Positions 380 through 9,848 are shown, counted from the first letter of the stretch. The stretch is DNA of 10,527 nt from Nanobdellota archaeon (GCA_038046345.1 JBBSWJ010000012.1:1-10527); one strand, 5' to 3'. Notes: generated from the sequence alone by a model not told the origin. Numbers and translations are program-made.

Positions 380-2950
380 CTAGCTACTGTTCTTACCTTT
401 CTTCTCAAGATCTTCGACTTTTTTATCAATCTTATTATAGCCAACTTCTCTTAACTTCCTCCATTTGCTGCGTACAAATAACCATGATATCCCTGCCAAT
501 ACCACCGCTCCAGCACCAGTAGCTACAGCACCAAATGGAATATTAGCCAGTTTGATTGTATCTAACACACTTCTACCAGTGATAATATTTTCTGGTTCTG
601 TTTCAGTTACCGGTTGTTTCACAACTTCTGTAGGTTTTTCTTCTACGACTTCAACTTTTTCATTTTCTGTTTTAACGTCTTCCTCAGTTTCAGCTACATT
701 ATCACTAAGCTCATTAGTCTCACTGCTAGCTCCGCCTCCGCCATCACTGCTTGTAGATGCGCCGCCGCCGCTACCTCCGCTATCACTACTACTTTCAGTT
801 GGTTCTGGCACAGCAATGCTAAATGTTCTTGTTTCTGACAGCCCAAATTGGTTTGCTAAATCAGTACATTGTACCATCCAGTTATATGTGGTATTATCAC
901 TAAATGTATTTGAAAACCTTTCACTACCACCTGAACTGCTTAAACTAGCAGACTTAGAGAAACTATTATCTATAAACAGACTACAATTCGCTATATTTGT
1001 GTCAATAGGAGTATAATCTAGGTTTACTTGGGTTGATGTTTGAGCTGCCCCATCGCTTGGAGATGATAAACTTACTGTTGGTATTGTCTTATCAACATGT
1101 AATATTCTTTTTTCAGAGGTTATATTTGAATTACCAGATCCATTGCAGCTTATTTGCCATGTTGCTAAACCTTCATCTAAGCTGATTGTAAAATTAGTAA
1201 GTTGATAACTAAGCGTAGATGTATTTGTTTGGTTGTAGAGATCATTAATATAAAGCGAGCAATTAATTACCTCACTGTTATTATCACTTGCATTAAATCT
1301 GAAATTTATGCTTGAGTAATTAAGATAAGTATCATTATCTGGGAATATCAGTTCAACATTTAATGGGTTTGGTATGCTTTGCACAGTAAAAGATTCTTGA
1401 GCTGTGTGATTTTGGTTTTCATTGTCATCAATTGCTATAAACCTATAACTAACAACCTTGCCTGGAGTAAAATTCCCGCCGTAAACAAAGAAAGAATAAT
1501 TGCCTGCTTCTTTAATCATGGTGTAATTAGTCATATTTTCTTCGAAATTACTTTCAAATAGCACATCTGACAAGTGTGTATCGCTGGTTGTTACGCTAAA
1601 TGTAACATTGGTATTGTTTGTTACGTTTTCTACATCTCTAGTCCAATTAGTCATGACTGGTGGTTGCTTATCTAGGAGTATTATTGCATTATTAAGCTCA
1701 ACTCGTGAGAATGTATAGTTAGTAACATTATCCTTAACCTTAACACCACTCTGATTTAATATTGCCCATGCTATTGTATTATTGAGTCTTTCACCATTCT
1801 CTAATAATGTGTATTGGTACATCACTGAAAGCATTCCTGCTACAAATGGTGTTGCCATGCTTGTTCCAGATCTGTCTTCAGTACTCCCGTCATAACTCAG
1901 AGATGTAATAATTGCTCCAGGAGCTAATATATCCAAGTTTGATGCTCTATTACTAAAGCATGTAAGTAAATCTGCATAAGTTTCTGCATCTGTGCACCTA
2001 TTGCTTGATACGCATGGACTTTTCAGGCACCAACTTCTTGACCCTATATCCTTATCATAAGTAGCACCAACACTTATCACATTGTCAGCGCATGCTGGAT
2101 GGCTTATTCCCTCAGTATAGTTTTCATTACCAGAGCTAGCAACTACAGTTATGTTTTTGCTCACTGCAGTTAGTATCTCAGTATCCCAATCACTCGGGCA
2201 TGTTGCATTAGTGTAAGATGCTCCATCTCCGAGGCTCATGCTGATTACAGAGATATTATACTGTTCAGCATATAACGTACACCATTCTATACCAGCTTTT
2301 ACATCTGCATCACTACAAACTCCAGAACTATCACAAACTTTTGCTATAGCTAAACGCGCATCCGGCCCAATACCTATCACACTTCCATTTGCGGCAGCAA
2401 TTCCAGCTACATGTGTTCCATGCCCTTGATCATCATATGGGTCATTATCAGAGTTTACAGTATCAGTTCCATTGATTATTTTTGAACAATTCCCTGCTAG
2501 AAAATCTCCGCGTGCGCACGAACCAAAGCTTTCATGTGTATAATTAATTCCTGTATCAACAATGCAGATTGTCTGTCCGCTGCCGGTTAGATTCATATTT
2601 TTTAATTGTCTTTGATGTACTATACTTGCATTTATTAGTTTTATCCCTTCTGTTATGTCTATATAATAATTCTTTGTTGGTTGTACAAGTTTTATTCTTG
2701 GATCGTTCTCTAATTGTTTAATACCATCTGGTGTTACCTCAGCAGAGAATCCGTTATAAAATTTGTATTCATGTTTTATGTCTATTTCATCATTGGGTAT
2801 GTTCCTTATCACAGAGTCTATTACCTTGGAGTTACTGTCTACATGATCTTCAAACGTGACTATAACATGGGTTATATCTTGCAATCCTGTTGCCGCACTT
2901 ACCTGAGTTATTAAAAGTATTATGAACAATAAGTATTCTCTTTTTCTCAT
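380..2950 (-). CDS. Secreted, C-terminally membrane-anchored subtilisin-like serine protease (S8) with an I9-like prodomain and Ig-like stalk domains
   Basis: 856 aa. N-terminal signal peptide (MRKREYLLFIILLITQVSA) and I9-type propeptide (YKFYNGFSAEVTPDGIKQLENDPRIKLV). Intact catalytic triad: IVDTG (Asp codon 2555-2557), HGTHVAG (His 2420-2422), GTSMATP (Ser 1859-1861), plus oxyanion SSGNE. These are followed by beta-rich repeats, a Ser/Gly linker, an acidic stretch, a hydrophobic helix and a basic tail. Confidence 0.96.
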   Translation of the reverse strand: MRKREYLLFIILLITQVSAATGLQDITHVIVTFEDHVDSNSKVIDSVIRNIPNDEIDIKHEYKFYNGFSAEVTPDGIKQLENDPRIKLVQPTKNYYIDITEGIKLINASIVHQRQLKNMNLTGSGQTICIVDTGINYTHESFGSCARGDFLAGNCSKIINGTDTVNSDNDPYDDQGHGTHVAGIAAANGSVIGIGPDARLAIAKVCDSSGVCSDADVKAGIEWCTLYAEQYNISVISMSLGDGASYTNATCPSDWDTEILTAVSKNITVVASSGNENYTEGISHPACADNVISVGATYDKDIGSRSWCLKSPCVSSNRCTDAETYADLLTCFSNRASNLDILAPGAIITSLSYDGSTEDRSGTSMATPFVAGMLSVMYQYTLLENGERLNNTIAWAILNQSGVKVKDNVTNYTFSRVELNNAIILLDKQPPVMTNWTRDVENVTNNTNVTFSVTTSDTHLSDVLFESNFEENMTNYTMIKEAGNYSFFVYGGNFTPGKVVSYRFIAIDDNENQNHTAQESFTVQSIPNPLNVELIFPDNDTYLNYSSINFRFNASDNNSEVINCSLYINDLYNQTNTSTLSYQLTNFTISLDEGLATWQISCNGSGNSNITSEKRILHVDKTIPTVSLSSPSDGAAQTSTQVNLDYTPIDTNIANCSLFIDNSFSKSASLSSSGGSERFSNTFSDNTTYNWMVQCTDLANQFGLSETRTFSIAVPEPTESSSDSGGSGGGASTSSDGGGGASSETNELSDNVAETEEDVKTENEKVEVVEEKPTEVVKQPVTETEPENIITGRSVLDTIKLANIPFGAVATGAGAVVLAGISWLFVRSKWRKLREVGYNKIDKKVEDLEKKGKNSS
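722..793 (-). repeat. Ser/Gly low-complexity linker within the subtilase
   Basis: Encodes SSSDSGGSGGGASTSSDGGGGASS, a GC-rich patch with GGGAS twice. Confidence 0.8.
812..1363 (-). repeat. Two tandem Ig-like domains of about 90 aa in the subtilase stalk
   Basis: Unit 1 (1091-1363): LNVELIFP...NCSLYIN...WQISC...RILHVD. Unit 2 (812-1081): PTVSLSSP...NCSLFID...WMVQC...RTFSIA. Both share the V-x-L-x-x-P, NCSL(Y/F)I and W-x-(I/V)-x-C pattern, suggesting one disulfide per unit. The Ig-like fold is inferred. Confidence 0.75.
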
Positions 2951-4270: not shown

Positions 4271-4978
4271 ATGAATGACCGGCTCTATGACTTTCTAATG
4301 AAAGAAGATGAAATAACATGGCAAACCATTATTCTTGACTTAATAAAAAGTGAAGAATTAAACCCTTGGGATGTAGACATCGGCGCTCTCACAAAAAAGT
4401 ATATTTACACCATAAAGAAAATGAAAGAAACAAACTTGTTCATATCAGGAAAAGTTATACTTGCTGCAGCTCTTTTATTAAGGATTAAATCAACAAAATT
4501 ATTAGAAGAAGATATTGCAGAATTTGACCAGCTATTATTCCCTCAATCCATTGAAGATTTCGACGAATTTATTGAACCAGAAAAAAACAGGGTAAATGAT
4601 ATACCACGCCTGGCCATAAAATCACCGCAAGCCAGAAAACGTAAGGTAACAGTTAAAGATCTTTTAAACGCATTACAAAAAGCATTAGAATTCAACAGGC
4701 ATCGTGTCAGAAAGCGTTTAATTGAAGCAAGGTACAACGCTCCAGAAATACCAGAGAAAAAAATAGACATAACTAAACTAATTGACTCTTTATATGAAAA
4801 AATAATAGATTTACTCTCAAAACAAGAAACAGTATTATTTGATCACCTCGTTCCATCTGATAAAAGAACAGACAAAATATTAACTTTTGTACCACTGCTA
4901 CACCTAAGCAATCAACAACAGATTTTACTTGAACAAGGAGATCCATTCGGTGCTATAAAAATCCAAAAATATTGTTAG
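4271..4978 (+). CDS. scpA: Segregation and condensation protein A (kleisin subunit of the SMC complex)
   Basis: 235 aa. N-terminal kleisin motifs LIKSEELNPWDVDIGALTKKY and SGKVILAAALLLRIKS, central RKVTVKDLLNAL, C-terminal winged-helix FVPLLHL...LEQGDPFGAIKI. Its stop overlaps the convergent gene by 4 nt (4975-4978). Confidence 0.95.
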   Translation: MNDRLYDFLMKEDEITWQTIILDLIKSEELNPWDVDIGALTKKYIYTIKKMKETNLFISGKVILAAALLLRIKSTKLLEEDIAEFDQLLFPQSIEDFDEFIEPEKNRVNDIPRLAIKSPQARKRKVTVKDLLNALQKALEFNRHRVRKRLIEARYNAPEIPEKKIDITKLIDSLYEKIIDLLSKQETVLFDHLVPSDKRTDKILTFVPLLHLSNQQQILLEQGDPFGAIKIQKYC

Positions 4979-6015
4979 ACCTCCTTCTTTACAGCATGTA
5001 ATAACACTTTATTAACAATATCCTCTTTCAAATGTATTTCAACATAAGTTTTATACTTCACCGTAACAGATCCACCATCACTGCTTACAAAATATTCTTC
5101 TCTCCATGTCCCTGTATTAACAAAATAACCACCCTTCTTCCTTTGTAGTTTTGCCTCATGGCTATGCCCCGCAACAACAACTTTGATTTTATTATCAGTT
5201 GCAAGCACTTCTTTTAATTGATCTTCAAATAGTAATTCATAATTATTTTGTAATAATCGTTTCAAATAATTAAACATTGTTTTAAAGGATAAACGATAAG
5301 TTAAGTCATGGTAATAACGCACTTGATTTATGACCGCTGTTTTTATTAAATATTTAAACGCACCAAAATTTAATTCTTTTACTAGTTTAGAGTATTTCTG
5401 AAGTATAAGATTTCTTGGGTAAATTCTATCAAGCATTGGATATCTTACTTTGTATTGCATATAATACTCAAACAATCCGTATGTCATCCATGGCAGGTTT
5501 AATATCTTTTTACCATTATAATCTATGAATATGCGTCTTGGATTTATATAAAATAATGAATCATACTGCGAACCATGCTCAAAATGTACTGAGCTTTTAT
5601 CATAAGAAAATCCTGGAAATTGCACACTTTTATTTATGTATTCCCTTAACTTTTTTTGGACGTCTTTAAATGCCACATCCATATCGTGATTTCCTAAAAC
5701 AAACACCAAAGTATTTTTTTTAATGGAACTAAATTTTTTATAAGAATCAAATACTTTTTTATGAGCCTGATAAATTCTTTCTAGTTTCCATAAAGACACT
5801 TCTGTAGTGATATACCGAGGATATTTTTCTTTATACGAGGACCTTATAAAATCAAATGAATCCCCATTAACCACCAAAGTAATTGGAATGTTTTTATATT
5901 TTTTACTACAAAAACCTAAAATTGTTTTCGATAATAAATCGTCACTTGCAAAATCATCTGTCTGCGACCCATCTCCAAGTTCAATGTCACTCATCCCAAA
6001 AATTATTTCTTTCAT
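4975..6015 (-). CDS. Calcineurin-like metallophosphoesterase (LpxH-like motif layout), substrate unknown
   Basis: 346 aa with all five motifs in order: SDIELG (DxE in place of DxH), NGDSFD, LGNHD, FEHGSQYD and AGHSHE. Confidence 0.9.
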   Translation of the reverse strand: MKEIIFGMSDIELGDGSQTDDFASDDLLSKTILGFCSKKYKNIPITLVVNGDSFDFIRSSYKEKYPRYITTEVSLWKLERIYQAHKKVFDSYKKFSSIKKNTLVFVLGNHDMDVAFKDVQKKLREYINKSVQFPGFSYDKSSVHFEHGSQYDSLFYINPRRIFIDYNGKKILNLPWMTYGLFEYYMQYKVRYPMLDRIYPRNLILQKYSKLVKELNFGAFKYLIKTAVINQVRYYHDLTYRLSFKTMFNYLKRLLQNNYELLFEDQLKEVLATDNKIKVVVAGHSHEAKLQRKKGGYFVNTGTWREEYFVSSDGGSVTVKYKTYVEIHLKEDIVNKVLLHAVKKEV

Positions 6016-6047: not shown

Positions 6048-6743
6048 TTATGCTTGAGCTATCTTGTTATCAGTTCTACCTTGAATTGAACCACCGATCA
6101 TTGTTTTATACTTCTCGCCTATTATGGGAAATACAGTACCTTGCAGTGGATAAACCTCAGTATTACGCGCTACTAAAACAGTCTGATTACCAAAATCACC
6201 CACTAGATCAGACAGAGCAGCCTTACTTGAGCTATAACCTCTTTCGTTTGCTAGATTAAACTCTACAGGTCTATCAACCACCTCTGTAGAGACATCTAAT
6301 GAAAAAGCAAAACCATAATGCTTCACAGTTCCATCAAGCGCGTAAGGCATGACTAATAAACCTTTTGCTGTAAACACCACACAATAAATACTGCCAATTT
6401 CTCTAGGTACCGGCTCTATTTTTATATCTTTTTGGATTATTTTTTCTAAATAACTAAATCTTCTATTCCACCATGATAATGATGGTGCATATTTAACAAT
6501 AAACTTTCTTACTGCTTTCAGATTTGGTTTTACAACTTCAATTTGCCGATTACTTCCAAATAAACGCAACAAATAAACATCCGGCGGTGTCACATCACCA
6601 AGCTCTTCTAAACTATCACTTGAATTAATAATAAGCCTACGCATAGGATAAAGCTCTCTTTCATCAAAAGCCAAAGTACAACTATCAAAACAATTTTCAA
6701 GAAATCCTTCTATTCCATTCAGATTATCTTCAAAATTACTCAT
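6048..6743 (-). CDS. Hypothetical protein
   Basis: 231-aa ORF filling the gap between two same-strand genes, with an ATG start and natural composition. No motif recognised and no clear transmembrane segment. Confidence 0.8.
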   Translation of the reverse strand: MSNFEDNLNGIEGFLENCFDSCTLAFDERELYPMRRLIINSSDSLEELGDVTPPDVYLLRLFGSNRQIEVVKPNLKAVRKFIVKYAPSLSWWNRRFSYLEKIIQKDIKIEPVPREIGSIYCVVFTAKGLLVMPYALDGTVKHYGFAFSLDVSTEVVDRPVEFNLANERGYSSSKAALSDLVGDFGNQTVLVARNTEVYPLQGTVFPIIGEKYKTMIGGSIQGRTDNKIAQA

Positions 6744-6791: not shown

Positions 6792-8390
6792 TTATTTTCT
6801 CCAGCGCCCGTTTATGATGGGGAGAGCTTGCATTAATCCACCAGGGTATAATACTCCATTACCAGCCATAGAAGTAGATGGAGCACCTAATTGATAATCC
6901 AACGGTATCTTAGAACTTGTTCCACAAGACATTGATTTGTGCCGCACCGCAGGCTGATGTACATGTCCCATCATGGCTCTTATATAACCATCGCTTAATG
7001 ATTTTAAACTACCTCTGCTATTATTTTTTCCACGGTCACCATGAGCTCCACATTGTACACCTTCATATATAGCATCTTCACCCAGCTTTAAAAACCGTAC
7101 ACGCGGTGGTAATGTACCTATCTCTTTTAAAGCTACCTCCAACACAGGCATATATTTTTGCATTTTTCCAAATATTAAACTTCCAAGCCTTGAATTTTTT
7201 GGATCGCGTCTATCTTCACCTTTTTCAAGCCAACGGCGTAACATATCATCATGGTTAGAGTAATTAATAACTATCTCCCCATCACCTAAATAGCTTGATA
7301 GCTCTACAAGGTAGTCCCGCACCCCAACTAGTTCTTTCTCAAGATCATCTTCGCCAGCTTCAGCTTTATACATAAGTTCAAGCGCCTTGTCTTTGTCATG
7401 GGGTGTTACACTCTGTGCATTAAAAATATCATTAACATGTAAATGTTTGGGTTTAAACCATGTTAGCATCTCTAAATTAGCCCTATGAGTGACAGGATCC
7501 ATTTCAGACACATGGGAATCACCAAACATCAGCACAATTGGCCTAATTTTTTCTGGATCTTTACCAAGAGCATATTTCATTCCTAAATCTACAAACATCC
7601 CATTCGCATTTGCCGGTACAAGTCTTGGTAGGTATAGTTTATCATCTAAAATATCAACTACAAAAAATCCAAGTTCATGCATACTATCTGCTGTAAATCC
7701 AACTCGGTTTCCACAATTGTAGTTACCTCTGGTTATAGCACCGCTAGCAAACATTAGTCGCGGAAAAACAGATGATTGCCCAGATGCAACTGGCTCCAAC
7801 ATTTGTTTCGTGCTGCCCATAACAAAAGATATCCCATTGTCCATTCTGGTATGAAGCGCCTTACCAGCTAAAGGATTTTGGTTTTGAGGTGGTTCTGGTA
7901 TTCCAAGTTCATGCATATTTGAGTTTAAGCGCTTTCCAGTAGCTTCATAATTTTCATCAGGTATTTCTTCCCAAAAATAGTGCATCGGCATTGACGCATC
8001 AAAATCAATCTCTCTTTCTTCAGCTTTTAACTTTCTTGCTTCCCACCCAGCTCTTTTAGCTCTTTCCTTTTCTCGGTCTATTGCTAATTTTGTTTTTGCA
8101 TTTTTCTCCATAAAAACGTCTGGTCTATCATGTAATATTGGATCAAGTGACCTTTCGCTTATATAAGACCCGGGAATTGCATCAATTCTTAACTCTCCAT
8201 TATTATCACCTACATAACGTTCTATGTTTTGTAATAATGATCGTATTACTTTCCCTTTTGAAGGATCTCTTCCATAAAGAAAAGCATGGTAAGGATTTTG
8301 TATTCCTTGAGCAGCGGTTATAACATATGTTTTTGGTTTAAACCTCGCGTCCTTAATTTTTCTACTTTTAACCTTTTTTCTAATACCCAT
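6792..8390 (-). CDS. Phage T5 A1-like metallophosphoesterase-fold protein, putative nuclease
   Basis: 532 aa. Metallophosphoesterase motifs are directly visible: FGDSH (GDSH at 7512-7523), HVNDIFN, YSNHD (SNHD at 7248-7259), CGAHGDRG and MGHVH (GHVH at 6957-6968). The non-catalytic segments YVITAAQ, NPLAG, RLMFASGAITRGNY, HELGFFVVDI, SNHDDMLRRWL, GVQCGAHGDRGKNNSRG and LYPGG...INGRW match the pattern I recall for T5 A1 and its phage homologs. The fold is confident; the A1 assignment rests on recall and needs a search. Confidence 0.8.
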   Translation of the reverse strand: MGIRKKVKSRKIKDARFKPKTYVITAAQGIQNPYHAFLYGRDPSKGKVIRSLLQNIERYVGDNNGELRIDAIPGSYISERSLDPILHDRPDVFMEKNAKTKLAIDREKERAKRAGWEARKLKAEEREIDFDASMPMHYFWEEIPDENYEATGKRLNSNMHELGIPEPPQNQNPLAGKALHTRMDNGISFVMGSTKQMLEPVASGQSSVFPRLMFASGAITRGNYNCGNRVGFTADSMHELGFFVVDILDDKLYLPRLVPANANGMFVDLGMKYALGKDPEKIRPIVLMFGDSHVSEMDPVTHRANLEMLTWFKPKHLHVNDIFNAQSVTPHDKDKALELMYKAEAGEDDLEKELVGVRDYLVELSSYLGDGEIVINYSNHDDMLRRWLEKGEDRRDPKNSRLGSLIFGKMQKYMPVLEVALKEIGTLPPRVRFLKLGEDAIYEGVQCGAHGDRGKNNSRGSLKSLSDGYIRAMMGHVHQPAVRHKSMSCGTSSKIPLDYQLGAPSTSMAGNGVLYPGGLMQALPIINGRWRK

Positions 8391-8456
8391 TTTAACGTAC
8401 TAAACCAATTCCTAGAACAAAATTAAAAGTGATTACTGAAATCAATTTAAAGTCAT

Positions 8457-8476
8457 AACTATACTTTGCTATAGTT
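8457..8476. promoter_or_regulatory. Perfect 7-6-7 dyad upstream of the A1-like gene (candidate operator)
   Basis: AACTATA (8457-8463), spacer CTTTGC, TATAGTT (8470-8476). It lies next to a TATA-like TTTAAATT (minus strand, 8444-8451). Confidence 0.35.
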
Positions 8477-8518
8477 TTGCTCTAATAATTCAAATGCTTA
8501 ATAATTAATATAATTTTC

Positions 8519-8538
8519 TAGTCATTCTCTTATGACTA
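8519..8538 (-). terminator. Candidate hairpin starting at the hisS stop codon
   Basis: Minus strand reads TAGTCAT-AAGAGA-ATGACTA, a perfect 7-bp stem whose first three bases are the TAG stop. The role is inferred. Confidence 0.3.
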
Positions 8539-9768
8539 CATTAATTTCTTCTTAACTTCCAACAAACTTAACCTTTCTTCTTTACCAGTAAGCATATTTC
8601 TCAAAGTATATTTTTTTTGACTTACTTCTTTTTCTCCAACTATTAATACATACGGTATCCATAACTTGCTTGCATAATCTAAGTTTTTGCTTACTCCTCT
8701 TCCTGTTAAATCCCAATCTGTGTTTACCCCATAATCTCTTAATTCTTGCACTATCTTAAATGATTCTTTTTCAGTTTTTATTGGGATTACATACACTTTG
8801 GTTATTGACTCATTCTCTTTTTTCTTTAATGCTAACGTTATTGGTACTAATCCAAAGCTTACTCCTACTGCTGGAACCTCCCTGCCGCAGTATCCGCCTA
8901 TCATCTTATCATATCTACCGCCCCCGCCTAAAGATACCGTTCTATCTTTTTTTGTGAAAACTTCTACAACCATCCCAGTATAATATGCTAATCCCCTTGA
9001 TAATGATGGCTCAAATGAAATACCTTTTGCAAATAATTTTTTTATTTCATCCAAACTGTCTTTGCTTACAAATTCTTGTAATACTTTTATTTTTTCTGTG
9101 TTAGTTCCTTTTGTTCCAATAAGCTCTAAAAGTTTTTTTGTGGTTTTACTATCAATTAATCCTTCTAACTCTTTTTGTACGTTTTCTCTGCCTATTTTTT
9201 TAAGTTTATCAATTACTAAAATTACTCTTAATTGTTTTTCTTTGGGTACATTAAACGATGTTAACAATTCATCAATTATTTTTCTGCTGTTAACTTCTAT
9301 AACAACAGGTATCTTTAATTTAGAAAATCCTTCCTGTAATAAGTTTATGCACTCAGCATCTGCTCTTATACTTGAAGTTCCAACAATATCAGCATCACAT
9401 TGTGTGAACTCTCTTTTTCTTCCTTTTTTTATTGGTCCATCCCTGAATACTTTTCCTATCTGATATCTTTTAAATGGTAACTTTAATTGTGGGTTCATTG
9501 CTATAAATCTTGCTAATGGGACTGTTAGATCATATCTTAATGCTAATTTTCGTTTACCTTGGTCTTGCAATGAGAAAGTTTCTTTAAGAATTTCTTCTCC
9601 TCCAGCATATTTTACTGATAATACATCAAACAGTTCTATTGTAGGCGTTTCTAATGGCTGAAATCCATATCTTTCAAAGGCTTTTTGAAGTACTTCTATC
9701 ACTTCTTGCTGTAATTTCTTATCAGCCGGTAATACATCCTCTGTTCCTCTTGGAGTTTGAAGTTTCAA
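8536..9768 (-). CDS. hisS: Histidine--tRNA ligase
   Basis: 410 aa with a TTG start (9766-9768). Contains TPRGTED, ALRYDLTVPLAR, motif 2 FRDGPIKKGRKREFTQCD, histidine-binding RGLAYYTG and GGGRYD, and a C-terminal anticodon-binding domain (YASKLWIPYVLIVGEKE). Confidence 0.98.
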   Translation of the reverse strand: MKLQTPRGTEDVLPADKKLQQEVIEVLQKAFERYGFQPLETPTIELFDVLSVKYAGGEEILKETFSLQDQGKRKLALRYDLTVPLARFIAMNPQLKLPFKRYQIGKVFRDGPIKKGRKREFTQCDADIVGTSSIRADAECINLLQEGFSKLKIPVVIEVNSRKIIDELLTSFNVPKEKQLRVILVIDKLKKIGRENVQKELEGLIDSKTTKKLLELIGTKGTNTEKIKVLQEFVSKDSLDEIKKLFAKGISFEPSLSRGLAYYTGMVVEVFTKKDRTVSLGGGGRYDKMIGGYCGREVPAVGVSFGLVPITLALKKKENESITKVYVIPIKTEKESFKIVQELRDYGVNTDWDLTGRGVSKNLDYASKLWIPYVLIVGEKEVSQKKYTLRNMLTGKEERLSLLEVKKKLM

Positions 9769-9776
9769 GTGTAAAG

Positions 9777-9848
9777 GGTGGTAAGGGAGAATCGAACTCC
9801 CGTTTGAAGAGCCACAGTCTTCTGTCCTACCATTAGACTACTACCACC
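9777..9848 (-). tRNA. tRNA-His (GTG), 72 nt, G-1 encoded, C73 discriminator, CCA not encoded, no intron
   Basis: Folded by hand: G-1; acceptor GTGGTAG/TTACCAC; D stem GTCT/GGAC with loop AATGGTA; anticodon stem GAAGA/TCTTC with loop CT-GTG-GC; variable AAAC; T stem GGGAG/CTCCC with loop TTCGATT; C73 at 9777, followed by CTT. Confidence 0.98.

Follow-up and report, generated by a model that had tools for sequence, protein, structure and literature searches.

The gene P0001, on the complementary strand of a 10,527-nucleotide stretch of DNA from a tiny archaeon of the symbiotic DPANN type, a Nanobdellota archaeon (the window, an entire contig of 10.5 kb from a genome of 821 kb and 97% completeness), encodes a protein of the family of bacteriophage T5 A1, also annotated as 'DNA transfer protein'. 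As securely as sequence and predicted structure allow, P0001 is a true A1-family protein with intact catalytic motifs, a member of the archaeal branch that this otherwise viral family has. The reading that we put forward, with a confidence only a little better than even, is that it is a chromosomal, phage-captured, metal-dependent DNase used on foreign, probably bacterial, DNA. We observe its homology, its intact motifs and fold, the cellular setting of the gene, and the structure and distribution of its clade; from these we infer a DNase activity, a direction of transfer and a physiological role.

An earlier note on this DNA had described a 532-residue protein carrying the metallophosphoesterase (MPE) motifs GDSH, SNHD, HG and GHVH and had likened it to T5 A1. 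The interval indeed holds one clean open reading frame (ORF) of that length, the sole long frame there, with every motif in place (Table 1), and the likeness is real. P0001 matches the PHROG profile phrog_1745, 'DNA transfer protein', with an E-value of 1.4e-57 (residues 168-531 against positions 171-541 of 542), and BLASTP aligns it with T5 A1 (T5.004 of NC_005859, YP_006832) at 24% identity and E 5e-29 (residues 168-530 against 181-554). With hhalign, the profile of 38 full-length archaeal homologues that also served for the conservation analysis was compared with seven phage A1s, giving a probability of 100 and an E-value of 2.3e-75 for a collinear alignment of residues 16-532 with T5 residues 92-556. 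Because this alignment spans almost the full length, the homology takes in the N-terminal half of the protein, and both the N-terminal motifs and six MPE motifs are common to the two proteins. The series YVITAAQ, GAITRGNY and HELGFFVVD, which the note had thought to mirror A1, finds its counterparts in RFIITSIQN, GTATLKNY and HNFGALIVE, and the SNHDxxLxRWL, CGxHG..G.N.SRG and GHxH stretches each have a counterpart in the phage A1 alignments. Asp-291, His-293, Asp-321, Asn-379, His-380, His-450, His-476 and His-478 show no variation across the 38 archaeal and seven phage sequences; the metal-bridging role presumed for Asp-321 is that of the standard MPE motif pattern. Compared with T5 A1, P0001 lacks the first ∼90 residues and has an extra insert with a charged helix as well as a basic tail. 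A tblastn search recovered 1128 phage nucleotide records with A1-like genes, at 24-30% identity. The only further PHROG match is to phrog_221, 'metallo-phosphoesterase' (E 1.8e-4), and no family of Pfam (E ≤ 0.01) or NCBIfam is matched, the Metallophos models included. As regards membership of the calcineurin-like metallophosphoesterases, the conserved metal motifs and the MPE sandwich fold are present and a match to a Pfam model is absent.

The two-lobed AlphaFold2 model of P0001 (mean predicted local distance difference test score, pLDDT, 91; predicted template modelling score 0.89) resembles over its full length two viral models in BFVD, both of them phage A1-like, with template modelling (TM) scores of 0.76 (521 columns) and 0.74 (556 columns). 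The better of these, at TM 0.76, is a 608-residue viral protein, probably that of Ochrobactrum phage OC. The fold likeness to the A1 family is drawn from models predicted for A1-like proteins of phages other than T5, T5 A1 itself having been compared by sequence. A fold search with VIA-align placed the C-terminal domain (residues 281-531) closest to the 3'-5' exonuclease subunit DP1 of PolD (Z 13.1), followed by Mre11 (Z 11.8), LpxH (Z 11.5) and SbcD (Z 10.7). With DP1, Mre11 and SbcD it has in common the fold and the binuclear metal site; unlike them, P0001 has neither OB nor capping domains, possesses a degenerate N-terminal MPE fold, and bears no relationship to them at the level of sequence, a search of the PDB by sequence returning nothing below E 0.05. 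The C-terminal domain keeps every ligand of the binuclear metal site and is most like these nuclease-type enzymes.

The N-terminal half is conserved in its own right, with YVITAAQ, TTGxxTxPNYN, HxxGF, Arg-256 and GxFxDLG standing out in the alignments. In an exhaustive fold search of the PDB with this half, all 50 of the 50 best matches were MPE-fold proteins, led by Vps29 (Z 9.0 over 169 residues), SapH (Z 8.5) and YfcE (Z 8.0). Since it returns MPE folds only, yet has neither the metal motifs nor similarity to the C-terminal half, we predict from the models that A1-family proteins are a tandem of one degenerate and one active MPE fold, the degenerate copy, its metal ligands lost, probably binding substrate or acting as a scaffold. 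An internal duplication visible in the sequence was considered and rejected, as hhalign of the two halves gave a probability of only 0.3. The A1 literature examined contains no statement of a tandem-MPE architecture. The long charged helix listed in Table 1 belongs to an insert at about residues 96-150, containing the motif PMHYFW, which is found in the 'long' archaeal subtype only and is missing, as gaps in the alignment, from phage A1 and from a short archaeal type; the phage profile covers P0001 from residue 168 onward only.

About 50 full-length homologues were found at 38-56% identity. Those records that carry names belong to Woesearchaeota, Pacearchaeota and Nanoarchaeota metagenome-assembled genomes. 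Their occurrence is patchy: a match is present in 14 of 201 sampled genomes of the order, in none of 16 from the archaeon's own family and in 11 of 20 from the family f19, and phylum-wide the PHROG profile finds 20 among 401 sampled genomes (∼5%). We built an unrooted maximum-likelihood tree of 87 sequences that include 69 from DPANN archaea and 12 bacteriophage A1s. Whether the DPANN copies form a clade had been raised in the earlier note, and all 69 do lie on one side of a branch with a Shimodaira-Hasegawa-like approximate likelihood ratio support of 94; a branch with support of 100 sets the 12 bacteriophage A1s apart, and the long archaeal type is likewise a clade with support of 100. The nearest sequences outside DPANN are viral or metagenomic, namely the protein of Ochrobactrum phage OC (vB_OspM_OC) and the metagenomic proteins P0055 and P0057-P0060, and the two contigs that were examined among the latter, those of P0059 and P0060, are phage-like. 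The proteins of OC, P0059 and P0060 make up the nearest non-archaeal branch, at no more than 39% identity to the short archaeal type, and unlike P0001 they are encoded in phage genomes beside PolB, DnaB, RecA and dUTPase.

As the nearest outside relatives of this DPANN-specific clade sit in bacteriophage genomes, capture from phages is the most likely origin, and a patchy spread among DPANN archaea would have followed. The tree being unrooted, what points from phage to archaeon is the much wider diversity on the viral side: the whole family comprises 2205 clusters at 50% identity, of which about nine are of the full-length long type, a count made without taxonomy. P0001 itself has a long terminal branch, and its closest relatives, at 55-57% identity, are in family f19, a combination that fits transfer within the order; the likely donor would be another lineage of that order. 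A literature search found no publication that describes archaeal A1 homologues; the authors of a 2026 study of T5 A1 regard A1 mainly as a marker of the family Demerecviridae (bioRxiv 10.64898/2026.04.02.716235).

We considered whether the gene could instead be the remnant of a decaying provirus or come from a viral contig that was mis-binned, given a contig of only 10.5 kb, a family that is overwhelmingly viral and a GC content of 0.383 for the gene, which puts it at the genome's 96.8th percentile. This is highly improbable, and the genes around P0001 already contradict it. The order hisS, scpA and RNase P p30 is the same in related genomes, and these flanking genes match those of same-family genomes at 45-60% identity, with tRNA-His also present. 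Neither viral genes nor flanking repeats were found; the short repeats around the insertion are at chance level, and no att site was seen among them. The remaining ORFs of the window encode a subtilase, RNase P p30, ScpA, HisRS and proteins of no recognised family, and have no significant match in PHROGs (one weak match, E 0.004, for a 346-residue MPE, P0063); tblastn against phages with P0063 and with the 231-residue neighbor of P0001, P0062, returned no matches. The note's statement that no other phage genes lie nearby thus stands, as does its placement of the gene in an archaeal DPANN chromosome. All invariant residues are kept, and the GC content at third codon positions equals that of the neighboring genes, which indicates that the transfer was not recent. 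Some homologues are carried by archaeal contigs 150-280 kb long, beside proteasome, exosome, enolase, rpS2 and tRNA-synthetase genes.

The note had placed P0001 between hisS and scpA. It does adjoin hisS, across a gap of 145 nucleotides, but two genes, P0062 and P0063, intervene before scpA. In two genomes of the same family (G035 and G068) hisS and scpA are ∼40 bp apart. Within this archaeal family the content of the junction varies (G080:C23, our locus L054; G008:C2, L055; L056 and L057), with purA in G008 and, in G080, ∼6 kb with EndoIV, PIN, TrxR-like and GDH genes and others of no recognised family. A homologue of P0063 adjoins scpA in G092, where there is no A1-like gene. With hisS and scpA adjacent in relatives and P0063 resident beside scpA, we read P0001 and P0062 as lineage-specific additions, P0001 having arrived at this junction probably together with P0062.

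What the enzyme might do is suggested by T5, in which A1 is necessary and sufficient for degradation of the host chromosome in vivo in E. coli; A1 alone brings about loss of the chromosome while sparing rRNA, and is toxic when expressed alone (bioRxiv 10.64898/2026.04.02.716235). By analogy P0001 would most likely be a Mn2+/Mg2+-dependent DNase. The wider functions of A1 in T5, in DNA injection and in the shut-off of pre-early genes, cannot apply to it. P0001 sits in an archaeal chromosome and is removed from the pre-early setting with A2, Dmp and first-step transfer; no homologues of T5 A2, Dmp or T5.005 were found, and tblastn with the T5 and Vibrio-phage A2 proteins and T5 Dmp gave no match in either the genome or any of 26 archaeal loci. 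The T5 phenotype also bears on an alternative in which P0001 is a phosphoesterase for a substrate other than DNA (nucleotides, dinucleoside polyphosphates or cyclic nucleotides) in a phosphate-starvation response. The fold scores of Ap4A hydrolase, LpxH and YfcE are close to those of the nucleases, DNase activity of A1 in vitro is unproven, and a gene for an AbrB-PhoU regulator is adjacent in 9 of the 27 archaeal loci surveyed for neighbors. Against such a role speak the loss of the chromosome, with rRNA spared, when T5 A1 acts alone, and the large additional N-terminal MPE-like domain and basic tail, which suit a polymer better than a small molecule; we regard this alternative as improbable.

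The search for related loci used archaeal motifs and was thereby blind to bacterial copies. Across the 27 archaeal loci the recurrent neighbors were a LigD_N 3'-phosphoesterase (12 loci), the AbrB-PhoU regulator (9), a 153-residue protein of no recognised family (6) and DeoC (4). All nine AbrB-PhoU neighbors match AbrB and seven match PhoU, and they fall in four separate places in the tree. The LigD_N gene lies within a few genes of the A1-like gene and frequently adjoins it, which, with a catalytic domain closest to DP1 and Mre11, would suit a DNA-repair or end-processing exonuclease of the Mre11 or DP1 kind paired with a LigD-type 3'-phosphoesterase. Yet within the archaeon's own order LigD_N occurs in none of the 14 A1-positive genomes and an A1-like gene in none of the 16 LigD_N-positive ones, which weakens the case for a general partnership; this genome lacks LigD_N and has its own DP1, and what T5 A1 produces is bulk destruction of DNA. 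We therefore hold a repair function to be quite unlikely.

In four loci (L021:8618-11976, L034, L036 and L041) the genes for DeoC, the 153-residue protein, the A1-like protein and a 121-residue protein stand in a row, and in L021 the stop codon of the second directly abuts the start codon of the third. The 121-residue protein, present in four loci, is weakly like nucleoside 2-deoxyribosyltransferases (Pfam E 0.039, PDB E 0.035), and such a row may describe a route from DNA through deoxynucleoside monophosphates and deoxyribose-phosphate to central carbon metabolism. The 153-residue family (c7) lies upstream of the A1-like gene in its six loci, a seventh copy being ∼6.5 kb away in L038; it has no match in Pfam, PHROGs, PADLOC or the PDB and is unrelated to family c17.

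A different arrangement is found in the nearest relatives of P0001 (G148/L031, L032, L046 and G118), where the A1-like gene lies 62-81 nucleotides upstream of, and co-oriented with, a gene for a protein with a pilin signal. The order there is the A1-like gene, a 657-residue protein with a class-III (prepilin-type) signal and a 1988-residue protein ending in an SLT domain, the three-gene operon being present at L031:7983-17533, L046 and L008. The A1-like gene thus heads the operon of the giant SLT proteins of Pacearchaeota and Woesearchaeota (fam00969), giant murein hydrolases of these small archaea that Castelle et al. 2021 (PMC8204110) proposed to serve as tools in bacterial episymbiosis, in an account that mentions no phosphoesterase or nuclease. 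Alleles in the A1 slot of this operon are 33% identical, compared with 61-88% for the neighboring genes, which points to replacement or very fast evolution of the slot.

On the reading of P0001 as a captured DNase, its probable use would be to degrade foreign DNA, from a bacterial host, from prey or from the environment, for a cell without purine synthesis. Some of the context fits scavenging or host attack: the pilin/SLT operon, AbrB-PhoU, DeoC, the nucleoside deoxyribosyltransferase-like gene and PurD, which was not found in this genome. The genome does encode ribonucleotide reductase and a nuclease of the staphylococcal type, and it has a DP1 of its own (C20:21742-22392). A bolder form of this reading, which we hold to be doubtful though conceivable, is that DPANN archaea living on bacteria have domesticated a phage weapon of host takeover, combining an A1 DNase with a pilus-like apparatus and murein hydrolases to feed a purine-deficient cell; the wall of the partner would be opened and its DNA degraded, and the copy in the window would be a relocated member of the toolkit.

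The low identity among alleles in the A1 slot of the pilin operon is also what an arms race would predict, and it could suit an antiviral or anti-plasmid nuclease, a captured phage enzyme that destroys invading DNA or, in abortive infection, the DNA of its own cell. Such a role would accord with the patchy distribution, with the toxicity of T5 A1 on its own, with the PIN gene at the variable junction in a relative and with the toxin-antitoxin genes (HepT/MNT, PemK/VapB) near the A1-like gene in L021 and L022. However, neither P0001 nor its partners match any PADLOC profile (PADLOC-DB was searched with P0001 and P0062), many copies sit among housekeeping genes such as those for rpS2, enolase, Rpb6 and the exosome, and a sensor or immunity partner is conserved nowhere, so that we consider a defence function unlikely.

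Several points weigh against P0001 as a captured DNase for foreign DNA. The N-terminus has no hydrophobic stretch resembling a signal peptide, and none is recognisable in the sequence, which leaves the access of the protein to foreign DNA unexplained; the sparing of the cell's own DNA is equally unexplained. DNA degradation by T5 A1 is established in vivo only (bioRxiv 10.64898/2026.04.02.716235), and the non-nuclease MPEs LpxH and Ap4A hydrolase, at Z ∼11.4, score near DP1. For the direction of transfer we lean, with an unrooted tree, on a cluster count to which no taxonomy is attached. The link to the pilin operon is restricted to one genus-level group, and the present genome carries its pilin and giant SLT genes on another contig (C20:32081-39480), with no A1-like gene. 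The window contains none of the suggestive partners (pilin/SLT, AbrB-PhoU, DeoC or the deoxyribosyltransferase-like protein), and DeoC, LigD_N and RuBisCO were sought in this genome and not found.

Table 1. Features of the window and of the protein encoded by P0001 (nucleotide positions in the window)
Feature	Position	Strand	Basis
P0001, A1-like gene, 532 residues, T5 A1/'DNA transfer protein' family	6792..8390	(-)	
Basic N-terminal tail, residues 1-19, Lys/Arg-rich	8334..8390	(-)	sequence; residues 1-14 predicted disordered, pLDDT <50
N-terminal half, residues 20-280, degenerate MPE-like fold without metal motifs	7551..8333	(-)	separate model, pLDDT 90.9
Long charged helix, residues 96-125	8016..8105	(-)	secondary structure of model; alignment gaps
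C-terminal predicted catalytic MPE domain, residues 281-532	6795..7550	(-)	VIA-align fold search
MPE motif I, GDSH (D291, H293), residues 290-293	7512..7523	(-)	invariant, 38 archaeal and 7 phage sequences
MPE motif II, presumed metal-bridging D321	7428..7430	(-)	invariant; aligns with T5 H339-D340
MPE motif III, SNHD (N379, H380), residues 378-381	7248..7259	(-)	invariant
MPE motif IV, HG (H450), residues 450-451	7038..7043	(-)	invariant
MPE motifs V/VI, GHVH (H476, H478), residues 475-478	6957..6968	(-)	invariant
AT-rich spacer, 145 nucleotides, hisS to A1-like gene, presumed promoter region	8391..8535	(-)	sequence
hisS, left anchor of conserved junction	8536..9768	(-)	
P0062, gene of no recognised family, 231 residues, 48 nucleotides downstream of A1-like gene, co-oriented	6048..6743	(-)	
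P0063, metallophosphoesterase, 346 residues, resident neighbor outside insertion	4975..6015	(-)	
scpA, right anchor of conserved junction	4271..4978	(+)	

The two neighbors of P0001 on the side of scpA differ in their distribution. P0062 has no match in Pfam, NCBIfam, PHROGs, PADLOC, phage genomes (tblastn) or the ESM Atlas. As with P0001, none of the 16 sampled genomes of the archaeon's own family has it, and its homologues in families f15 and f22 have no A1-like gene close by. A prediction of a complex between P0062 and the A1-like protein scored 0.00 and gave no answer. The family of P0063 is present in 4 of 16 genomes of f1, the archaeon's own family, in 9 of 21 of f4 and in none of the 20 of f19, 11 of which are A1-positive. 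A three-gene module of the A1-like gene, P0062 and P0063 is ruled out by this differing distribution of P0063 and by G092, together with the P0062 homologues in f15 and f22. The P0063 family is confined to f1 and f4 within the order, and P0063 itself matches the PADLOC candidate PDC-S10 weakly (E 1.4e-5). A scan of the window for bacterial-type promoters and terminators was uninformative, its models not being suited to an archaeon. A tRNA-His (GUG) gene lies at 9776-9847 (-), 8 nucleotides upstream of hisS on the same strand, placing the synthetase beside its cognate tRNA, and the 856-residue subtilase at 380-2950 (-), which carries an I9 propeptide as well as a Big_7 domain of the Ig-like kind, is probably a protease that the cell secretes.

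Among the phages themselves, a DNA methyltransferase gene stands directly before the A1-like gene in Lacusarx (Sphingobium), phi17:2 (Cellulophaga), phiCbK (Caulobacter) and Papperlapapp (Brevundimonas) (L026, L027, L058 and L059), with a further methylase gene downstream of it in phiCbK and Papperlapapp, and Dmp or polynucleotide kinase genes adjoin A1 in Lacusarx and in Vibrio phages. The methyltransferase beside A1 hints that phage A1s may tell methylated self DNA from that of the host.

T5 destroys the chromosome of its host by means of A1, a protein that is as yet poorly understood, and a stable cellular clade of the family with intact catalytic motifs raises the question of how a 0.8-Mb genome tolerates a protein lethal to E. 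coli. The archaeal homologues offer diverse, small and well-folding material for the biochemistry and structure of A1, its predicted tandem-MPE architecture included. They also provide a concrete candidate enzyme for the long-assumed scavenging of nucleic acids by DPANN episymbionts, one that in some lineages is physically linked to an operon proposed to attack the bacterial cell wall. If the domestication of a phage weapon were true, it would represent a cross-domain transfer from a bacterial virus to an archaeon, in which the gene has been re-used for parasitism or predation.

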